A stretch of DNA of 7,663 bases, from IMG/VR virus record IMGVR_UViG_2778261534_000005. One strand, written 5' to 3'. The stretch is from a virus (taxonomy: Duplodnaviria; Heunggongvirae; Uroviricota; Caudoviricetes). Made by a program: the position numbers and the translations under genes. Below, one piece after another: positions 1 to 7,663 of the stretch. A model generated the notes under the pieces. The model did no database searches, was not told the DNA's origin, and worked only from the letters and a program-made list of their open reading frames with translations. The stretch's first letter is position 1, and each line of letters starts with the position of its first letter.

Positions 1-30
1 CAAGCCATAGGGAGGTGTAGAGAAACCGTT

Positions 31-72
31 AAGGTGTCTGTACAGTTACATCTTAAACAACCATCACAGTGA
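31..72. repeat. Copy A of a degenerate dispersed repeat (aaggtg ... agttacatcttaa ... acagtga)
   Basis: The 13-mer agttacatcttaa at 44..56 recurs exactly at 319..331. Both copies are preceded by aaggtg (31..36 and 313..318) and followed by acagtga (66..72 and 331..337). Copy A carries short insertions relative to copy B. Confidence 0.55.
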
Positions 73-312
73 TGTCAAATAGTTCTTTTAAGAAGGGAGG
101 GTTCTTTCTCATGTATCACCCTCTCTTCCCGTTAAGTAAGCTACACAGACCTAGAGAACATGCTCTGTAACACCTTCACAAACATTGACTAAGGTCAACT
201 TCATAAACTCAGAGTTAAGTTACCTTGAAAGATTTTACCAAGAAACTACACAGGTGTTATTTAGTCTGACTGTGAAGGGATATTTAACGGGAGAGAAAGT
301 AACGATATACCG

Positions 313-337
313 AAGGTGAGTTACATCTTAACAGTGA
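313..337. repeat. Copy B of the same degenerate dispersed repeat
   Basis: Same motif order as copy A (aaggtg, agttacatcttaa, acagtga). Flanking sequence is also loosely alignable: gttaagtaag occurs at 131..140 and 451..460, and aagaag-gaggg-like runs follow both copies. Confidence 0.55.
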
Positions 338-411
338 CTGTAAGAGATACCTGAAAAGATACTTAACAGAACTACCAAGAAGAGAGGGAACGATAAGACC
401 AGAGGTAGTGA

Positions 412-424
412 CCTGTTAAACAGG
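412..424. repeat. 13-bp palindrome CCTGTT-A-AACAGG
   Basis: 6-bp arms are exact reverse complements around a single central base, inside the repeat-rich noncoding block. Confidence 0.5.
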
Positions 425-845
425 CTGTTTCAAAGTCTCTTAAGAAATCTGTTAAGTAAGGGCTATGTGACCAATATTACCATTTTGTCAATGCTTTTGT
501 CTTTGACCTAAATCAATAAAATGTATCGTTTGATATGCTTTTAAACAAAATGGCTAAAAAATCTTTTTAGAGGGGCGCTTCGCTTGTGTCACCAATATAT
601 TCTTCCCTGTCTAAGAGGGAAGTTACAGGGACATTTCAAAGCCCTCAATAGACAAACCGAGGAACACGGGAAACCGAGGGAAGAAAAATCTATTGTGATT
701 GCCTTGAACAAGGTCTGTAAAGGTCGTTTAAGGGGTCGGTTAAGAAAGGAGCTTCCCTCTCTGGGGTTATCGCTCTTCTCTCGCTTAGTGGATTGATTAG
801 GGGTTGTGTTATACAAGCCCAACTAAGAAGACCTCTGAAGTTTCC

Positions 846-1035
846 CTGTGAAGAAGCTGAACAGCTATTATATATGGCTAATTACAACTAATTGAAAAAT
901 AAGCATTTTTAGAAGTTACTGTTAAGGTTACAGAGTTGTCTGTGAAGAGACTTGTCAGTTCTCTATATATGGCTAATTACAACTTATTGAAAAATAAGAA
1001 CTTTTAGAAGTTACTGTCAGAGAGGTGAATACTTG
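846..1035. repeat. Imperfect tandem duplication of a ~94-bp unit (846..939 and 940..~1035) with a near-identical 54-bp core
   Basis: Both units start with ctgtgaaga. The cores at 869..922 and 964..1017 (tatatatggctaattacaac-N-attgaaaaataag...ttttagaagttactgt) differ at only about 3 positions; the flanks are more diverged. Confidence 0.8.
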
Positions 1036-1098
1036 ATAGATACAGCTTTCCGGTTCTGTCAAGCTATTTTTTCATAGATAGCACAAAATGCTAAAGAT

Positions 1099-1128
1099 AC
1101 CCCTATACCATCACGTACAGGGGGTTTT
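1099..1128 (-). terminator. Putative hairpin terminator for the leftward small-protein transcript, possibly bidirectional
   Basis: Stem 1100..1108 pairs with 1115..1123 (9 bp; one G-U wobble in the minus-strand RNA, which is an A-C mismatch on plus), loop 1109..1114. It sits 14 nt downstream of the minus-strand stop at 1138..1140 and is followed on the minus strand by a U-rich but interrupted tail; on the plus strand TTTT (1125..1128) follows. Confidence 0.35.
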
Positions 1129-1137
1129 GGAGGGATT

Positions 1138-1326
1138 TTAACGAGGGTCTGTATGGTTGTCTTCACGGCCTCTGTCCTTGAGGTCAAACGACCATTCACG
1201 ACCAAACAACCGAAACACGATAAACACCCTGACGATGAAATAGCGAAGTAGTAGGCCTGCAATCAGCCCAACACCTCCACCAGCCCATACATCAGGTGAC
1301 CCCAGTTCAGGAGGGAGATTTACCAT
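1138..1326 (-). CDS. Small membrane protein, 62 aa, one predicted transmembrane helix; function unknown
   Basis: ORF-track product MVNLPPELGSPDVWAGGGVGLIAGLLLRYFIVRVFIVFRLFG... has a hydrophobic core followed by a charged tail. GAAGG Shine-Dalgarno about 8 nt upstream of the ATG on the minus strand; extended -10 promoter ~110 nt upstream; hairpin after the stop. Local GC is higher than in the flanking noncoding DNA. Confidence 0.4.
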   Translation of the reverse strand: MVNLPPELGSPDVWAGGGVGLIAGLLLRYFIVRVFIVFRLFGREWSFDLKDRGREDNHTDPR

Positions 1327-1440
1327 TCAATGTACCTTCTGTGTGCAATGCAAAAAACATGTGACCATTCTCGATAGTTGATTCGGTTTATCGAATAAAC
1401 CTCATAGCCACGCTTCATATTTTCCCTCTCCCATAAACCC

Positions 1441-1470
1441 ATTATACCATAAATGTTAATAAATTGTTAA
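1441..1470 (-). promoter_or_regulatory. Leftward sigma70-type promoter with an extended -10 (TGnTATAAT)
   Basis: The minus strand reads TTAACA (plus 1470..1465), an 18-nt spacer, then TGGTATAAT (plus 1449..1441). The -10 hexamer is a perfect TATAAT with the TG extension. Confidence 0.5.
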
Positions 1471-1477
1471 AAAATAC

Positions 1478-1506
1478 TTGACATTAGTCTTTGAAACTGC
1501 TAGTAT
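1478..1506 (+). promoter_or_regulatory. Rightward sigma70-type promoter for the operon starting at 1559
   Basis: TTGACA at 1478..1483, 17-nt spacer, TAGTAT at 1501..1506, with an AT-rich tract upstream. It lies back-to-back with the leftward promoter; the two -35 elements are about 8 bp apart. Confidence 0.5.
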
Positions 1507-1558
1507 TGTATATATAGTTAACAGGAAATTAACAAACACTAAGAGGGTCAGAATATGA

Positions 1559-2113
1559 ATGAGAGACGCAGAATTTAGAGCGATGCTTCAGGCATCAAAA
1601 GAACGCAACAGACACAACGGTTACAGCTACACAAACAACCCCACCAGCTACGAAGTCCCAGCCTTTACCAAATCCGAACGTAAAAACATTGAAGCGGTCA
1701 TTCGTAGCATTACGCCACGAGACAGATTTATGCCAACTAGAAAGAGCACCCAGAACAGCATCAAAAATTATCTGGCTAGTTTTGACAGCTACGAGCAACT
1801 ACCAAGCAAGCTTGATGATATTTTCATTGGATTCTGTAGAGGTGAAGGTCACCCAAAATACAACAGAAAGCTATTTTATATTCTAAAGAATCTTGACGAA
1901 ATTAACACATGCAGCGTGACAAATCATCTTCAAAGACAATCAACCAGACTTAGCTACGAATTACCAACCGATGCCTATTGTGCATTGCTTGCTGTAATGT
2001 GTGCAAAGCTAATTGGTGTTGTTGAGCATCATGTTGCCGTTGGAAATATTGAGCCAATGGAAAACGAGCAACCAGATTTCGAGTTTGACCCGTATATTTT
2101 GGAGGAATTTTAA
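1559..2113 (+). CDS. Hypothetical protein, 184 aa, basic N-terminus and acidic C-terminus
   Basis: Long ORF directly downstream of the promoter; AAGAGGG ribosome-binding site at 1542..1548. First gene of a tightly packed chain. No family recognised by eye. Confidence 0.7.
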   Translation: MRDAEFRAMLQASKERNRHNGYSYTNNPTSYEVPAFTKSERKNIEAVIRSITPRDRFMPTRKSTQNSIKNYLASFDSYEQLPSKLDDIFIGFCRGEGHPKYNRKLFYILKNLDEINTCSVTNHLQRQSTRLSYELPTDAYCALLAVMCAKLIGVVEHHVAVGNIEPMENEQPDFEFDPYILEEF

Positions 2114-2116
2114 ATA

Positions 2117-2395
2117 ATGAATAAACACACATTAACCCGTATTTCAGAGGAAGCTTTTAACGAGCTTACCAGAATTAAACGAGCTACTAACTTGCCTCAT
2201 CAAACTGTTATGCAACTTGCAATCGCTAAAGAAGTCACTGAGTCGGATTTACTTAAATATCCAGTCTCTAAAGGTCGTAAACACATCCGAATTACTACGG
2301 ACGCTTTAGATACTTTGAAGGCACTTAACAGCTTTAAAATTGATATTGCCCGACTATTGAGCATCAAGATTCACAAATTATCTCAGGAGGTCTGA
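2117..2395 (+). CDS. Hypothetical small protein, 92 aa; possible ribbon-helix-helix-like DNA-binding protein
   Basis: GGAGG at 2101..2105; starts 3 nt after the upstream stop. The N-terminus (TLTRISEEAFNELTRIKRATNLPHQTVMQLAIAKEV) has a strand-helix-helix pattern reminiscent of CopG/Arc-type folds. The fold assignment is inference only. Confidence 0.65.
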   Translation: MNKHTLTRISEEAFNELTRIKRATNLPHQTVMQLAIAKEVTESDLLKYPVSKGRKHIRITTDALDTLKALNSFKIDIARLLSIKIHKLSQEV

Positions 2396-2397
2396 TT

Positions 2398-2670
2398 ATG
2401 AAGCAATGGCGAGATGATATTAAACGGTTCTTTGCAACTTACTTCATGATTAATTACGAAACAGGAATGCTTGAATGGATTGATGGCGGAGAGGTTAAGA
2501 CAAGAGATGATGCTTACGGTAATCCAATGATTCGTTATGGCACTCGTGATTATTATGTGAAGTATGTCATCTGGTTTTTGCATCATGAAGTTCAGGCAAC
2601 TAAAAAGATTATCTTCAGGGATGGTAATAAAAGAAATTGCCACCCAAACAATTTGCTACAGGAGGTTTAA
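2398..2670 (+). CDS. HNH_3-like (homing-endonuclease-related) small protein, 90 aa; canonical catalytic His not evident
   Basis: AGGAGG at 2385..2390 with 7-nt spacing; starts 2 nt after the upstream stop. The C-terminal IIFRDGNKRNCHPNNL (nt 2608..2655) matches the DGNK-N...NL core of HNH_3-type endonucleases, but Phe-Arg sits where His-Ile is usual. Confidence 0.7.
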   Translation: MKQWRDDIKRFFATYFMINYETGMLEWIDGGEVKTRDDAYGNPMIRYGTRDYYVKYVIWFLHHEVQATKKIIFRDGNKRNCHPNNLLQEV

Positions 2671-3056
2671 TGTATGACTTTTATAAACATCGTGACCATT
2701 TGGTAAGATTTGACGGTAAAGTCTGGAAAGACGTAACACAAACCAATAAGCCCAAGTTTACCCACCAGCAATTAGCCTCAAGATTTGATATCTGGACTGA
2801 AGCACAAAAAGATAATGGTGATTTCGAGTTTATCAGGGGTTTTGATTATGCTTACGAAGACGACCTTAAAGACGCCATTAAATTAATTGAGAATTTCAAC
2901 TCTATTAAAAGTGGTGACAAGCACAAAGCCAATGGTAACAGATACGATAAAGATTTAATCATTGATGCAATCACCAAAGGACAATCACAAAGTTATATTT
3001 CTGAGAAATACGGTTTATCACGCAGTCAATACTACAAGATTAAAGCGTCTGTGTAA
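2670..3056 (+). CDS. Putative DNA-binding protein, 128 aa, with a C-terminal recombinase/invertase-type helix-turn-helix
   Basis: The ATG at 2670 overlaps the upstream TAA (TAATG); GGAGG at 2661..2665. The ORF track starts this frame at a TTG at 2637, but the ATG with its Shine-Dalgarno is the more likely start. The C-terminal SQSYISEKYGLSRSQYYKIK resembles HTH_7/Hin-type helix-turn-helix motifs. Confidence 0.7.
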   Translation: MYDFYKHRDHLVRFDGKVWKDVTQTNKPKFTHQQLASRFDIWTEAQKDNGDFEFIRGFDYAYEDDLKDAIKLIENFNSIKSGDKHKANGNRYDKDLIIDAITKGQSQSYISEKYGLSRSQYYKIKASV

Positions 3057-3068
3057 GCCTGTGAGAAT

Positions 3069-3115
3069 GAGTGAGACTCAAAGATGAGCTACCCTATTAC
3101 TAAGGTGTCTCACTC
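3069..3115. promoter_or_regulatory. Perfect 9-bp inverted repeat GAGTGAGAC-N29-GTCTCACTC in an intergenic region
   Basis: Arms at 3069..3077 and 3107..3115 are exact reverse complements. A second small hairpin follows (gtaacc/ggttac, 3121..3137). No T-tract follows, so it is not a classical intrinsic terminator. Confidence 0.45.
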
Positions 3116-3193
3116 CCTCTGTAACCCGCATGGTTACTGGCCTCAGAATGGCTATTTTGGCAGATTTAAGATGTGTTTTAGAGGAATTTAAAA

Positions 3194-3517
3194 ATGAACA
3201 ATCACCCAATGCAAATTTTCGTTGATAACGACACCGCCATGATGATTCAGGCTTTCAGTGATGTAGGTGTTGGCATTGACTTTGATAAGTTGTTAGAGTT
3301 AATGGCTGCTAATGCAGAAAACATCTCTGACTTTATTCAGTCGGTGGAGTTTAACGAGCCTCGAATGATGCTACCAATTTCAGACAGCAACATGAAAAGA
3401 TTGGTTATCGAGCAAACGAACAAATACAGCGTTAGCCCTGAAAGATATCTCAAGGCAGCTATAGCAATTTTGTACGCTGACAATATTTTGGTGACGGATT
3501 CCGTGAGGGTTCACTAA
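3194..3517 (+). CDS. Hypothetical protein, 107 aa
   Basis: AGAGGA ribosome-binding site at 3179..3184, 9 nt before the ATG. No family recognised. Confidence 0.65.
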   Translation: MNNHPMQIFVDNDTAMMIQAFSDVGVGIDFDKLLELMAANAENISDFIQSVEFNEPRMMLPISDSNMKRLVIEQTNKYSVSPERYLKAAIAILYADNILVTDSVRVH

Positions 3518-3594
3518 TGACGTTAATTGTATTATGGACGCTGTTAGGCTTATTTGTTGGCTGCATTATTAACAATGCGGTAAATAAGAATTGA
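3517..3594 (+). CDS. Small hydrophobic peptide, 25 aa (MTLIVLWTLLGLFVGCIINNAVNKN), possible single-pass membrane peptide
   Basis: Absent from the ORF track (too short). The ATG at 3517 overlaps the upstream TAA (TAATG); GAGGG at 3505..3509 with 7-nt spacing. Hydrophobic core followed by a polar basic tail. Confidence 0.4.
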   Translation: MTLIVLWTLLGLFVGCIINNAVNKN

Positions 3595-3618
3595 TGTTAC
3601 CAATCTGTTAAAAAGCTG

Positions 3619-3647
3619 TTGACAAATAACCTTAAGCATGACATAAT
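3619..3647 (+). promoter_or_regulatory. Sigma70-type promoter (TTGACA-17-CATAAT)
   Basis: Perfect -35 TTGACA at 3619..3624, 17-nt spacer, CATAAT at 3642..3647. Confidence 0.5.
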
Positions 3648-3656
3648 TTTAATTAT

Positions 3657-3684
3657 AGAGAGAATTGCTCTCTTATTTTTTTTT
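3657..3684 (+). terminator. Hairpin plus T-tract (intrinsic-terminator-like) just downstream of the promoter
   Basis: agagag (3657..3662) pairs with ctctct (3668..3673), loop aattg, followed by tattttttttt (3674..3684). Confidence 0.5.
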
Positions 3685-3817
3685 CAACAATTCCATCTAC
3701 ATCTAGGGATAGTTATTCTGAAAGGTGCAATGCTTTTCGCTACATGGCCTCTTATATAACCTGAGAGGTCATCTCGAAAAGTCTTTGTTCATTCATTATT
3801 GAATCCTTTACAGCTTT

Positions 3818-3856
3818 GCCCTAACTCATGATTAGGGCGTTTCTTTAAGAGTTTTT
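3818..3856 (+). terminator. Hairpin plus U-rich tail (terminator-like)
   Basis: gccctaa (3818..3824) pairs with ttagggc (3832..3838), 7-nt loop, then gtttctttaagagttttt. Confidence 0.4.
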
Positions 3857-3915
3857 AAACAGAACTTTTAAAGAAAGTTTTTCCTGAAACTTCGTTAACG
3901 TTAAAGCAAACCTTC

Positions 3916-3960
3916 AAAGCCCTTCACAGATGAGGATGAACCTATGTTTAGGGCTTTTTT
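3916..3960 (+). terminator. Hairpin with a large loop plus T-tract (terminator-like)
   Basis: aaagccct (3916..3923) pairs with agggcttt (3950..3957) around a 26-nt loop; the T run extends to 3960. Confidence 0.35.
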
Positions 3961-4070
3961 CAGCTTTTAAAAAGCATACTTGGCAAACGCCTTTTAAGCC
4001 TCTTCTAAGTTCGAGGATGTCAGGTGTGCTTTTTAAAAACTGAATATTACTTAGAAGAGGAAATGAAATA

Positions 4071-4781
4071 ATGGCAAATGACATTTATATTAGTGGAAGA
4101 AAAATTGATAGCTTCGGTGACTGGTCGCCACAGACTGAACATCCAGCTATCGCTATTCAGCGCAAAGAGCACGATGAAAGAATTGCACTTGAGCAAGAGT
4201 TAAAGATGACACCAAAGGAAATTACCTTTGTGTCTCCTGAGCCTCAAGAGATGCCTGATGTATGCAAAACTGAATCATTACTTGAGCTTGAGCGTGAATA
4301 TTACCCACTACTGAAAGCACAAAGAATTAAACTTGATATTGCTTACGATGCGGTTAAGAACTTCGAAGAAACCTCGAAACCTTCAGAATATGATATTGCT
4401 TACGAGATTAAGTCAAACCCATTTATCTATTATGAAGGAAACTTTAATGATGGTTTTGGTACAGCGATTGAAGACGTTCCTAAAGTTCTTCAAAGTATCC
4501 CTGAAGGGTTCCGGTTAATTGATGTCAGACAAGCATTAAGGGGTTCTGGTCAATTTATCCTGATGAGTGATAAGACAGATGAAGAGATTCTTCAGTTAGC
4601 TGAAGCTAATTTGACTAAGCATTATTCCGGTAAACTGGATAAGTTAAAGCAAAAGCTTAGAAAAGAACTTGATAGCATGAAAGAACTTGTTAGTGAATAT
4701 GAATCACAGAAGAAGATTGCTATGCAGGCTGATATTGAGCAGTTAGTGAAGATTTCAACGAAGTACGCAAAGGTGCTTTAA
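4071..4781 (+). CDS. Hypothetical acidic protein, 236 aa; possible tail assembly chaperone by position (inference)
   Basis: GAGG at 4057..4060 about 10 nt before the ATG. First gene after the long noncoding region and two genes upstream of the tape measure gene. Rich in Asp/Glu with a helical, charged C-terminus. Confidence 0.7.
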   Translation: MANDIYISGRKIDSFGDWSPQTEHPAIAIQRKEHDERIALEQELKMTPKEITFVSPEPQEMPDVCKTESLLELEREYYPLLKAQRIKLDIAYDAVKNFEETSKPSEYDIAYEIKSNPFIYYEGNFNDGFGTAIEDVPKVLQSIPEGFRLIDVRQALRGSGQFILMSDKTDEEILQLAEANLTKHYSGKLDKLKQKLRKELDSMKELVSEYESQKKIAMQADIEQLVKISTKYAKVL

Positions 4782-4804
4782 CTACGAATTAAAAAGGGGT
4801 GTGA

Positions 4805-5008
4805 ATGATTGATTTAACAGAACGCTATGAACTTATCAAAGCAATTAGCGAACGATTGAAAGAACAACCCAACAAACCAAAACGAATCAAATCATCCACC
4901 TCTAAGCAAAAGAATAGAATCAGAAGAATCGCTAAGTGGTGTCTTGATAAATTACCAAGTGATTGTCAGATTGTCGGTGAAGATGGCAATTATTATCTGA
5001 TTAAGTAA
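4805..5008 (+). CDS. Hypothetical small basic protein, 67 aa
   Basis: AAGGGG ribosome-binding site just upstream of the ATG at 4805. Its frame is closed by TGA at 4802..4804, so it is not a frameshift extension of the upstream gene. Confidence 0.55.
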   Translation: MIDLTERYELIKAISERLKEQPNKPKRIKSSTSKQKNRIRRIAKWCLDKLPSDCQIVGEDGNYYLIK

Positions 5009-5027
5009 AGAATTGGTTGGGTAAATA

Positions 5028-5067
5028 CGGGGAGAGATTAACCTTAATTGGTTGGTCCTCCCCTTTT
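5028..5067 (+). terminator. Strong intrinsic-terminator-like hairpin immediately upstream of the tape measure gene
   Basis: ggggag (5028..5033) pairs with ctcccc (5057..5062), with internal pairing aacc/ggtt around ttaatt, followed by ttttt (5063..5067). It ends 33 nt before the ATG at 5100. Confidence 0.6.
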
Positions 5068-5099
5068 TCGTATATGAACACTTAAGAGGTGAAACATGA

Positions 5100-7277
5100 A
5101 TGAGCAAATTCACAGTTGATAGTTTTATCGTTGAGCTAGGCTTCAGCGAGAACGTTATTAAGGGCTTGCAAAGAGTTGAAAAGGCAGCTTTGCAGTCAGC
5201 ACAAAGAATTGAAAAGAACCTAAATAAAGGTTTCAGGATTAATACAAAGCAGCTTGATAGTAATTTAACGACTTCTTTAGGGCAACTTGAAAGGAAGTTT
5301 AATAAGACCTTTGACAAGATTGAACAGAGAGCAAGAAACACAAAAGTTTTCCGTTTCACAAGTCAGGTTAATGACGCTATTAATCCTCCAAAACAACCAA
5401 GACAGCCACGAATTAGCGGAAACAGAGCAATCACAGCAGCTTATTCAGCGAATATGAGCAAGCTAAAAGGCTTTGACCCTATTTTGCAGAAATACATCAA
5501 ATCTCAGTTTTACGGGCTATCTGCTAAAGCTGGGTCAATGGATAATTCAAAATTCAATGAGAAGCTGGCTCAGTTAAACACTTCAGTCAGAGAAGCAATT
5601 GCTAAAGCCAGAGGTCATACATCCACCAGCATTAACAATACAAGCGACGCATTTAATAATCTTGCAAGCAATGCGATTAAATTATCTGGTGCATTTTACT
5701 CTGTGATGGGTGCTCTTAACGCTTACAAGGCCATTATGAATGCAGGTCTTAAACGAGATTCCGCACAGAGAGCCGCTAAGTTTGTACTTGGTGATAAAGC
5801 ATCTGAAGCTGAAACATTTATCAGGGGACTGGCTGACAAGACAGGTCTTAATATCTCTGAAGGGCTATCAAGCTACGCTAAGTTTGCAGCAGGTGCTCAG
5901 GGTTCTATGTCACAGGAACAGACACAGGAGCTATTTGGTAATGCAACGGCTATGAGTCGCTTAATGGGGCTTTCTAACGACGAGCTAAACGGCATTCTGA
6001 AAGCATTTGAGCAGATGGCGAGCAAGGGCAAGATTCAAGCTGAAGAGCTTCGTGGGCAGTTAGGTGACCGTATGGCTGGTGCATTTAAGCTATTCGCTGA
6101 AGCATTGGGTATGACTGCTACAGAGCTTGATAAAGCGATGAAAGACGGGAAGATTTTAAGTAGTGATACTCTCCCTAAAGTCGCTAAACAGATGGGCTTG
6201 ATGATTGATAAAGCGGGTGGTTGGGCTGAAGTCGCTAAGAGCACTCAGACAGCTTTAGGTAAGTTAGCAAACAACTGGGATGACACGATGGTGAAAATCT
6301 TCTCAGGTTCACAGGATGAGCTAAATGGCTTCTTATCCAGCCTGAGTAACCTGCTTAGTGAAATGGGTATGAGTTCTTCTATCGCTGGTGATGCTATCGG
6401 TGGACTTATCGACATGCTTAAAGCTGGTGTAGATGATATCCGTATCTTTAACAATCACATTGAAGGCTGGATTTTACAGACTAAGAAGTTCTATTACAGC
6501 CTTGATGACACTAAACGAAAACTACTTGATGAAGTCGGTGATGGTTTTATCAATTTTGTCAAAGGTCTTGCTATAGCGTTATCTGCAAAGACGCTATTCA
6601 GTGCTACTACAGGGGTTATGAACCTGACAAGAGCAATCACAACGTTAGGTACAAGAGCTAATCAGGTGGCTGGTCAGGTAGCTACTGGTAAAGGTGGTGG
6701 AAAACTGAAAGGTGTAGCTGGTGGTGTAGGTAGTGCTCTTGCAATTGGTTATGCTGATGACGGTTATGAAACAGCGTTAGCATTAGCTTCAATGATTCCA
6801 CAAATCAGAGGTGTCACTCTTGGTTTATATGCATTGAAGAAAGCACTGGATTTTATGAATCAGGAAGTAGTCAAAAACGCTAATATGCATCCATCTGGGG
6901 TAGGTGTGGGTAGTGACTTTAATCCTGTGTATTCTGGTGACCCTAATAAACCGAATGTGATTAACGAAGGATGGAGTAGAATTTTTAGTTCAATGGGTGA
7001 ATTGTTTAACAATGCCACAATGAATATTGCAAGATTCAATCATCCAGAATTGATTACCATGAAACAAGATGCATCATTAACGAGCACTGACATCCAAAAT
7101 CTAAGAGATGAAATTAGTGCTTTGAGTAAACGTATTCAGGAGCCAGTGAAAGTTTCACTTGGTGGTGAAGTTGCCATTAAACCAGATGAAACCAGCTTTA
7201 TGACCTTTAGCAGTAATATCTACGACCAATATGCAGAAGCTACGTTATTAAGTTCATCATTCCCAGAAGATGATTGA
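5100..7277 (+). CDS. Phage tail tape measure protein, 725 aa
   Basis: AAGAGGTGA ribosome-binding site 8 nt upstream. Residues ~291..366 (nt ~5970..6197; LSNDELNGILKAFEQMASKGKIQAEELRGQLGDRMAGAFKLFAEALGMTATELDKAMKDGKILSSDTLPKVAKQMG) match the conserved tape measure domain pattern. Long Ala/Gly/Leu-rich helical-looking protein with a Gly-rich segment at residues ~526..549. Confidence 0.85.
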   Translation: MSKFTVDSFIVELGFSENVIKGLQRVEKAALQSAQRIEKNLNKGFRINTKQLDSNLTTSLGQLERKFNKTFDKIEQRARNTKVFRFTSQVNDAINPPKQPRQPRISGNRAITAAYSANMSKLKGFDPILQKYIKSQFYGLSAKAGSMDNSKFNEKLAQLNTSVREAIAKARGHTSTSINNTSDAFNNLASNAIKLSGAFYSVMGALNAYKAIMNAGLKRDSAQRAAKFVLGDKASEAETFIRGLADKTGLNISEGLSSYAKFAAGAQGSMSQEQTQELFGNATAMSRLMGLSNDELNGILKAFEQMASKGKIQAEELRGQLGDRMAGAFKLFAEALGMTATELDKAMKDGKILSSDTLPKVAKQMGLMIDKAGGWAEVAKSTQTALGKLANNWDDTMVKIFSGSQDELNGFLSSLSNLLSEMGMSSSIAGDAIGGLIDMLKAGVDDIRIFNNHIEGWILQTKKFYYSLDDTKRKLLDEVGDGFINFVKGLAIALSAKTLFSATTGVMNLTRAITTLGTRANQVAGQVATGKGGGKLKGVAGGVGSALAIGYADDGYETALALASMIPQIRGVTLGLYALKKALDFMNQEVVKNANMHPSGVGVGSDFNPVYSGDPNKPNVINEGWSRIFSSMGELFNNATMNIARFNHPELITMKQDASLTSTDIQNLRDEISALSKRIQEPVKVSLGGEVAIKPDETSFMTFSSNIYDQYAEATLLSSSFPEDD

Positions 7278-7373: not shown

Positions 7374-7663
<290 letters not shown>

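Follow-up and report, generated by a model that had tools for sequence, protein, structure and literature searches.

A probably nuclease-dead HNH_3-like protein as an optional cassette of a Felixounavirus-linked chromosomal island in Escherichia coli

The IMG/VR record IMGVR_UViG_2778261534_000005 is a stretch of 7,663 nucleotides (nt), here called the window, to which all coordinates refer unless another source is named. It contains an operon in which a small HNH_3-like protein of 90 amino acids (aa), ORF1, is followed by a helix-turn-helix (HTH) protein, ORF2. On balance, the reading that we favour is that ORF1 is a truncated, catalytically dead derivative of a free-standing HNH_3(-AP2) homing-endonuclease lineage, maintained by selection in the early operon of a chromosomal island, where it is an optional cassette of one gene. 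Judging from its sequence, ORF1 almost certainly cannot cut DNA. In an original prediction made by eye, the pair had been described as a possible two-subunit nuclease, a decayed homing endonuclease or a domesticated DNA-binding regulator, and it is the last of these options, a domesticated binder or regulator, that the data favour.

The active site and kinship of ORF1

The catalytic positions of ORF1 were read from Pfam coordinates, from MAFFT alignments with I-HmuI alone and with a larger set of phage endonucleases, and from hhalign; the I-HmuI sequence in the alignments was verified to be identical to residues 1-104 of PDB entry 1u3e. In I-HmuI the Asp is a metal ligand, the His is the general base and Asn87 is hydrogen-bonded to the general base, and the metal ligand that precedes the general base is Asp74 in this enzyme and a His in colicins (PMC2816704). 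In ORF1, the column of the Asp (D74) is occupied by Ile72 and that of the general-base His (H75) by Phe73 (TTC, 2614-2616). Pfam coordinates, MAFFT and hhalign concur on both columns, and the by-eye alignment that had placed a Phe at the His position was correct: the HNH_3 match, inspected at its catalytic positions, has no His in the general-base column. The change from His to Phe amounts to two nucleotide substitutions (CAT to TTC). The element that is kept is the pair N85-L86, which aligns with the structural Asn (N87) of I-HmuI and which is invariant in 9/9 aligned sequences and in 169/169 aligned remote modules.

The chain, whose C-terminal sequence is KKIIFRDGNKRNCHPNNLLQEV, stops four residues past this pair and before the helix equivalent to that of N96 in I-HmuI, a residue that is said to be the second metal ligand. 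No AP2, NUMOD or HTH domain is found on the protein, which ends just past the motif. A sister allele of 95 aa, the H-type (P0028, 'IIHRNGN...'), belongs to the same island family and is 40% identical to ORF1. Its C-terminal sequence is IIHRNGNRADTRPKNLMQVRDFKRN and its terminal Asn aligns with N96 of I-HmuI. One of the four catalytic elements is thus kept in ORF1 and three of the four (His, Asn and terminal Asn) in the H-type allele. The His of the conserved 'vHr' is a Lys in both of these mini alleles.

A structure model of ORF1 (from a seven-sequence alignment) reached a mean pLDDT (predicted local distance difference test) of 74. It consists of a helix (residues 3-15), four strands, a second helix (54-65) and strands 71-73 and 86-88, with no helix after them. 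Over the motif the pLDDT is 54-65 only, a region of low confidence for the beta-beta-alpha-metal fold.

It is improbable that ORF1 is still an active nuclease or nickase that relies on non-canonical residues, for example H62/H63, C81/H82 or E89, in analogy to NixI. The Asn-Leu pair is kept, the satellite PLE (phage-inducible chromosomal island-like element) directs an I-HmuI-like HNH/N nickase at its helper phage (PMC9410903), and general-base mutants of HNH enzymes such as HpyAV H295A can retain about 1% activity (PMC2816704). Nevertheless, three of the four catalytic elements are gone, and H62, C81 and H82 are not kept in the sister allele. LeGault et al. cited a validated catalytic Asn of I-HmuI and reported that the equivalent substitution N95A, at the position of the Asn that ORF1 lacks, largely abolishes the nuclease activity of NixI (PMC9410903). 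Moreover, the His-less motif recurs beside intact copies in tandem proteins, as would be expected of a non-catalytic module.

The kinship of ORF1 with HNH_3, which had been proposed from the sequence, is real. Residues 52-86 match positions 1-36 of the 46 of the Pfam HNH_3 profile (PF13392) with E = 7.6e-05 and 22.7 bits, which is below the gathering score of 24.8 and hence below the threshold for Pfam membership. In the same way, the HNH families phrog_959 (6e-05) and phrog_99 (4e-04) of PHROG match ORF1. The H-type allele scores 33.4 bits on HNH_3, over the threshold, and the canonical 173-aa HNH_3-AP2 protein of some island copies scores 52.7 bits. A profile of ORF1 and the H-type was aligned by hhalign to the latter protein with 94.8% probability (E = 5e-08, 88 columns). 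A profile search of 1.84 billion representative proteins returned 117 proteins at E <= 1e-3, and all ten of those that were scanned are Pfam HNH_3 proteins. The H-type score, the hhalign result and the large profile search make the homology secure despite the sub-threshold score, and ORF1 is best described as a real but divergent HNH_3 relative. In parallel, PDB searches with the sequence of ORF1 or the family profile gave spurious matches to antibody light chains and xylanase only, tblastn of ORF1 and ORF2 against 50,697 phage records gave no match, and NCBIfam and PADLOC scans of the operon proteins gave nothing meaningful for any of them.

Loss of the His is not confined to ORF1. When the remote homologues from the profile search (P0036-P0146) were aligned to the ORF1 family profile, the column of F73 contained 124 His, 17 Phe, 13 Tyr and 12 other residues. 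Among relatives with a single module, 40 have the His and seven lack it. Tandem relatives comprise 35 with His in both copies, ten in which a His-less copy is followed by a His copy and 12 with both copies His-less. In the two triple-module relatives (xxH and xHH) the His-less copies again come first, and in mixed tandem proteins the His-less copy is N-terminal to the intact one in 12/12 and never follows a His copy. A near-exact ORF1 signature is found in several relatives, for example P0123 ('VMFRDGNKRNLRASNL') and P0140 ('LSFRDGDKTNLHPDNL'), and the closest outside relative, P0054 (168 aa), which is 41% identical over residues 11-87 of ORF1, is also His-less. HNH_3 modules predicted to be nuclease-dead thus turn up repeatedly, ORF1 being a minimal example that stands alone. 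That dead copies repeatedly precede live ones in tandem proteins suggests that the module can be a non-catalytic partner.

Selection on ORF1 and its relation to ORF2

Polymorphism was assessed in two sets, ten distinct ORF1 alleles and six alleles not picked by protein identity. The ten alleles gave a synonymous polymorphism (pS) of 0.073, a nonsynonymous polymorphism (pN) of 0.0025 and a pN/pS of 0.035; these samples are small and six alleles had been fetched by exact protein identity, and the independent subset gives the same picture. In the six independently sampled alleles, nine polymorphic codons are synonymous only and two are protein-changing, both of the latter (codons 88 and 90) lying at the 3' recombination junction. 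For comparison, the pN/pS was 0.085 for the H-type allele and 0.19 for ORF2. These values indicate that ORF1 is under purifying selection and is not a decaying pseudogene.

It is quite unlikely that ORF1 is a functionless relic, that is a decaying homing-endonuclease gene that hitch-hikes in the island. A relic would be consistent with the absence of the catalytic residues and the DNA-binding tail, with the sub-threshold Pfam score, with the presence of the gene in some islands and its absence from others and with the frameshifts of some copies. On the contrary, the low pN/pS at this level of pS with amino-acid changes confined to the 3' junction, the intact state of ORF1 in 67/67 carrier genomes, a protein that is identical in Escherichia albertii and the preservation of the gene's own strong Shine-Dalgarno sequence all speak for maintenance. 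What had been called decayed is so as far as the catalytic residues and the DNA-binding tail are concerned, but the open reading frame itself is under purifying selection.

The junction of the two genes was confirmed by reading the sequence, as the stop codon of ORF1 (TAA, 2668-2670) and the ATG of ORF2 (2670) have one base in common (TAATG). A mechanical list of open reading frames starts ORF2 at TTG 2637, and homologues and gene calls begin at MYDF, that is at ATG 2670, which is why ORF2 was taken as 128 aa. The occurrence of the two genes was counted in 5,426 complete E. coli genomes. ORF1 was found in 67, every copy being full length and at least 95% identical, while 128 carry ORF2, full length in 125. 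In only 20 genomes do the two genes stand next to each other, so that their co-occurrence is not obligate. ORF1 is present in 67 of the about 545 island-bearing genomes, a presence/absence polymorphism of the kind seen for homing endonucleases.

At least five layouts fill this slot of the operon. The order 92 aa, ORF1, 128-aa ORF2 (layout A) was found in 20 genomes; 92 aa, ORF1, 66 aa (B) in about 45; 92 aa, 71 aa, H-type HNH (C) in 226; and 96 aa, 128-aa ORF2 (D), with a stop/start overlap as in layout A, in about 105. A fifth order, 92 aa, ORF1, 76 aa, 73 aa (E), was found in E. albertii. The F-type gene, which is ORF1, and the H-type gene flank opposite sides of the 66/71-aa gene. Homology between island variants breaks exactly at the ORF1/ORF2 junction, and this breakpoint, where ORF1 ends, agrees with the finding that genetic exchange boundaries are occupied and marked by nuclease genes (PMC10448857). 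At every junction of the operon the genes are spaced by -1 to +3 nt, with the Shine-Dalgarno sequence within the preceding gene.

This distribution bears on the proposal of a split or two-subunit homing endonuclease, in which ORF1 as the nuclease and ORF2 as the DNA-binding module would assemble through translational coupling. The TAATG overlap with its strong Shine-Dalgarno sequence, the C-terminal HTH that I-HmuI-type enzymes carry on one chain (1u3e) and the 20 complete genomes in which the pair stands side by side are in its favour. However, 70% of the ORF1 copies have no neighbouring ORF2 and 84% of the ORF2 copies no ORF1, three different genes are found 3' of ORF1, and the spacing is equally tight for all operon genes. 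Asp, His and last metal ligand are also missing from ORF1, and by hhalign ORF2 has no homology to the C-terminal domains, of AP2 type, in the single-chain proteins related to ORF1. With such independent assortment (67/128/20) and changing neighbours, the two-subunit reading of the original prediction is unsupported and must be considered very improbable. The overlap of the two genes reflects dense operon packing and the shuffling of modules at gene boundaries, not a functional pairing. One in-frame deletion fusion (P0009) was found as a single sequence.

Another way to join the two proteins would be a programmed -1 frameshift at C_CCA_AAC, which would fuse residues 1-83 of ORF1 to ORF2 in an architecture like that of a homing endonuclease. 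This heptamer falls within a stretch of about 30 nt where the -1 frame reads open into ORF2, with a rough chance estimate of about 0.03 for the sole heptamer to be located there. The fusion is nevertheless hardly credible. No RNA structure that could stimulate it was predicted downstream of the heptamer (z = 0.87), the conserved Asn-Leu would be lost, and slippage at A_AAC is weak in E. coli. Moreover, ORF2 has its own Shine-Dalgarno sequence and ATG and is mostly found without ORF1.

Possible role of ORF1 and comparison with known systems

As a selection-maintained, nuclease-dead derivative, ORF1 would be expressed in the early operon from its own strong Shine-Dalgarno sequence and would act by binding rather than by cutting, through the retained N-terminal scaffold of beta-sheet and helix. 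The equivalent N-terminal sheets of I-HmuI reportedly contact DNA. The bound target could be DNA or a partner protein, with ORF1 serving the island as an accessory factor. In conflict between element and phage, or in the regulation of the element, the task of ORF1 could be to keep a nuclease target occupied or masked or to modulate an HNH_3 enzyme that is active, and ORF2 would be an independent small HTH regulator. This specific binding role is less certain than the structural and evolutionary part of the reading.

Some points weigh against the favoured reading. The argument for a binding function is drawn solely from the remaining fold, and the residual activity of the HpyAV general-base mutant mentioned above bears on the claim that ORF1 is dead, as do the allele set fetched by protein identity and the rare frameshifted variants (P0004, P0006 and P0007) on the claim that it is maintained. 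In addition, the share of His-less modules among the remote relatives (44 of about 167 aligned modules, 26%) is inflated because the query profile itself has Phe at this position in 3/7 rows.

A tentative extension, which we consider unlikely although worth stating, is that His-less '[FY]-[RK]-D-G-N...N-L' HNH_3 modules may form a conserved class of pseudo-nucleases. The free ORF1 copy in a satellite-like island may then act in trans, either as an inactive partner that limits or diverts an HNH_3 enzyme encoded by a phage or by the island itself, or by masking target sites, so as to shield the element from helper phages of the Felixounavirus type or to interfere with them. No description of His-less HNH_3 pseudo-nucleases was found in the searchable literature, which is absence of evidence only.

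The nearest well-defined proteins are the free-standing HNH_3-AP2 endonucleases of T4-like phages, such as RB49 p040 and gp57 of the Klebsiella phage Matisse, both of which adjoin gp46/gp47, together with the 173-aa protein of the island. They are homologous to ORF1 over its residues 2-89 (hhalign, 28% identity), share with it an N-terminal 'W..e..r...' and 'sG.L' scaffold, the helix and the NL motif, and match phrog_99 over the equivalent region. ORF1 differs from them by Ile-Phe in place of Asp-His, by Lys in place of the 'vHr' His and by the absence of the metal-ligand helix and of AP2. Free-standing homing endonucleases from more than 2,000 phage records share 36-41% identity with the island HNH_3-AP2 protein. 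In the case of I-HmuI (PDB 1u3e), D74, H75, N96 and a C-terminal DNA-binding HTH are all present on the chain, and ORF1 has none of these.

NixI of the Vibrio cholerae PLE resembles ORF1 in being encoded by an I-HmuI-like HNH/N gene on an island of the phage-satellite type (PMC9410903). NixI is an active, Asn-dependent nickase, whereas ORF1 lacks both that Asn and the His, and the 95-aa H-type allele is a plausible NixI analogue. The H-type allele, with the catalytic His, the terminal Asn, a passing Pfam HNH_3 score and purifying selection (the pN/pS given above), is a candidate active NixI-like nickase in its own right. CapR of PLE and Odn of ICP1, which are domesticated in conflicts between phages and satellites, are also reminiscent of ORF1 in that homing-endonuclease modules are reused without homing or apart from it (Barth, Dunham and Seed 2023, PMC10448857). 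On the other hand, they involve T5orf172/GIY-YIG-type genes and DNA-binding domains, and no HNH_3 pseudo-nuclease is described there (PMC10448857).

ORF1 is labelled 'HNH endonuclease' in RefSeq, and because its sequence says that cutting is almost certainly impossible, the label would mislead surveys of defence systems and mobile elements. Selection-kept and recurrent modules of this predicted nuclease-dead kind point to an uncharacterised non-catalytic use of the homing-endonuclease scaffold, comparable to the reuse of AP2 and CapR-type domains.

ORF2, the operon and the host island

The original prediction had placed a recombinase-type HTH at the end of ORF2, and this is borne out by the structure model and by BLASTP, with Pfam scores under the gathering thresholds (HTH_7, 14.6 against 23.8 bits; HTH_28, 18.0 against 25). 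The model has a beta-beta-beta-alpha-beta-alpha domain at residues 1-76, a disordered linker (81-90) and a three-helix bundle (94-126), the predicted fold of which resembles the DNA-binding domain of a resolvase, Hin or a transposase. A profile of residues 94-127 aligned weakly with the HTH of gamma-delta resolvase (E 0.4-0.9). By BLASTP, ORF2 aligns with the C-terminal HTH of the small serine recombinase of the island, and the motif G[KQ][ST]...I.E..G[IL]SR..YY[RK][LI] is common to both. Structures were compared with PDB and BFVD, and the latter contains one full-length structural relative of ORF2 (127 aa, E = 4e-06). ORF2 differs from resolvase/invertase HTH proteins (HTH_7; gamma-delta resolvase, Hin) in having no recombinase catalytic domain.

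The N-terminal domain of ORF2 has no Pfam match. Its homologue is the 76-aa protein of other islands, which lacks the HTH (33% identity, E = 1e-04). A cryptic AP2 in the beta-beta-beta-alpha part of this domain, which would have revived the idea of a split gene, was rejected (hhalign probability 0.06-0.17%, no Pfam AP2 match). ORF2 would be a separate optional cassette that encodes a small protein resembling a regulator, in which a novel N-terminal domain is joined to a resolvase-type HTH. An HTH of the same kind is shared by ORF2, the small recombinase and a Dam-type N6-adenine methyltransferase of the island (5408-6070 of island copy L008), which carries it at its C-terminus (HTH_7, E = 2e-04).

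Table 1. Features of the operon, alignment motifs and related genes in other island copies
Feature	Position	Strand	Remarks
Divergent promoter-like site	1470-1441	-	Consensus scan only; faces the 62-aa minus-strand ORF
Promoter-like sites upstream of operon 184aa-92aa-ORF1-ORF2-107aa	1478..1518	+	Consensus scan only
First operon gene, 184 aa	1559..2113	+	No family; O/DnaD-like replication initiator in this slot in other variants
92-aa gene upstream of ORF1	2117..2395	+	96-aa homologue directly before ORF2 in most ORF2 islands
Shine-Dalgarno sequence of ORF1, AGGAGG	2385..2390	+	Inside 3' end of the upstream 92-aa gene; read from sequence
ORF1	2398..2670	+	90 aa, "F-type" mini HNH_3-like protein, predicted nuclease-dead
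Degenerate HNH motif I72-F73-R-D-G-N-K-R-N-C-H-P-N-N85-L86	2611..2655	+	Alignments with I-HmuI, RB49 p040, Matisse gp57 and island HNH_3-AP2, and hhalign
C_CCA_AAC	2643..2649	+	Sole X_XXY_YYZ heptamer in ORF1 frame; judged chance
Shine-Dalgarno sequence of ORF2, AGGAGG	2660..2665	+	Read from sequence
Recombination breakpoint, recurrent between island variants	2661-2676		Overlaps the Shine-Dalgarno sequence of ORF2; ORF1/ORF2 junction
ORF2	2670..3056	+	128-aa two-domain protein; AF2 mean pLDDT 75.8
ORF2 N-terminal alpha/beta domain, residues 1-76	2670..2897	+	Structure model; also a stand-alone 76-aa protein elsewhere
ORF2 C-terminal resolvase/invertase-type HTH, residues 94-126	2949..3047	+	Pfam sub-threshold, structure model, profile, BLASTP
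107-aa gene, operon end	3194..3517	+	ORF list
Terminator-like hairpins after 107-aa gene	3657-3673, 3817-3839		Scan
H-type sister allele, 95 aa	L009 7578-7865; L020 3991-4278		Other side of 66/71-aa gene; 226 complete genomes
Canonical HNH_3-AP2 gene, 173 aa	L020 842-1366	-	Left end of some island copies; RefSeq 'AP2/ERF family transcription factor'
I-HmuI motif			Alignment row: V-D-H-K-D-G-N-K-D-N-N-L-S-T-N-L-R-W-V-T-Q-K-I-N
Motif of canonical phage and island enzymes			Alignment row: I-D-H-I-D-x-x-P-x-N-N-x-x-x-N-L-R-E-...-N
H-type allele motif			Alignment row: I-I-H-R-N-G-N-R-A-D-T-R-P-K-N-L-M-Q-x-R-D-F-K-R-N(end)
ORF1 motif			Alignment row: I-I-F-R-D-G-N-K-R-N-C-H-P-N-N-L-L-Q-E-V(end)

The operon belongs to an element of about 11-12 kb that interrupts yecE or sits between ymdF and wrbA, ends in a large serine recombinase of 507/547 aa and is present in about 545 of the 5,426 complete E. 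coli genomes (about 10%). From left to right it consists of a variable left end, with a small resolvase, a Dam methylase or an HNH_3-AP2 gene, a divergent promoter region, the 184-aa, 92-aa, ORF1, ORF2 and 107-aa genes and terminators, after which follow a 236-aa gene, a 67-aa gene, the tape measure gene, a Dit-like gene and the recombinase. The exact ORF1 protein was found in more than 2,000 assembly blocks and is chromosomal in 6/6 listed places. The matches of ORF1 among complete E. coli genomes are likewise all chromosomal, and it also occurs in E. albertii. By its sequence context, the window is not a free phage.

The tape measure gene (5100-7277) and the start of the Dit-like gene (7434-7663, about its first 200 nt) show 92-97% DNA identity to virulent Felixounavirus, an identity that is shared by more than 200 virulent Felixounavirus genomes, whereas blastn of positions 1-5100 of the window against the 50,697 phage records gave no match. 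This implies that a lineage of lytic phages and a chromosomal element have recently exchanged DNA. Neither a capsid nor a terminase gene was seen in the element, and the tRNA and Rfam scans of the window gave no match. The combination of an integrase, a replication module that can be swapped and a small number of tail genes like those of a helper, but neither capsid nor terminase, suggests a phage satellite, and the island is probably one, with a defence element as the alternative.

Barth et al. 2023 predicted satellites in E. coli that resemble the island in being integrative elements of about 13 kb with a tape measure and a baseplate-hub gene, some with serine recombinases, and with variable initiators. 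They differ in carrying capsid genes and in matching Justusliebigvirus, while the present island matches Felixounavirus. The island was rejected as one of these satellites on account of its other locus and other gene content; the two loci in CP011416 are 3.14 Mb for the element of Barth et al. and 4.83 Mb for this island. No described Felixounavirus satellite or yecE serine-recombinase island was found in the searchable literature, which again is absence of evidence only. Parts of its tape measure and Dit are almost identical to their counterparts in virulent Felix-O1-like phages. The island may be an undescribed satellite of biocontrol phages, and it is a more interesting object than ORF1 itself.

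Several further features were observed along the window. The 1.5 kb of positions 1-1558 contain no ORF of more than 77 aa, and the equivalent region in some islands extends over about 3 kb without called genes. In this part, a 54-nt direct repeat (869-922 and 964-1017) is 94% identical between its copies, and a 62-aa ORF whose core is hydrophobic, and whose counterpart in other island copies is annotated as 58 aa, lies on the minus strand at 1138-1326 and could encode a toxin or a small membrane peptide. ORF2 and the 107-aa gene are separated by 138 nt that contain a 14-nt inverted repeat (3064-3077/3107-3120), and a promoter-like site was found at 3619-3647, near the terminator-like hairpins. 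Further downstream, a 27-nt inverted repeat that is 85% complementary (3959-3985/4018-4044) lies just 5' of the 236-aa gene, and at 3959-4044 the passage from the early genes to the tail-gene module may be regulated. Finally, the 236-aa protein (4071-4781) is labelled 'transposase' by RefSeq in many genomes, with no significant match in Pfam, PHROG, NCBIfam or PADLOC.

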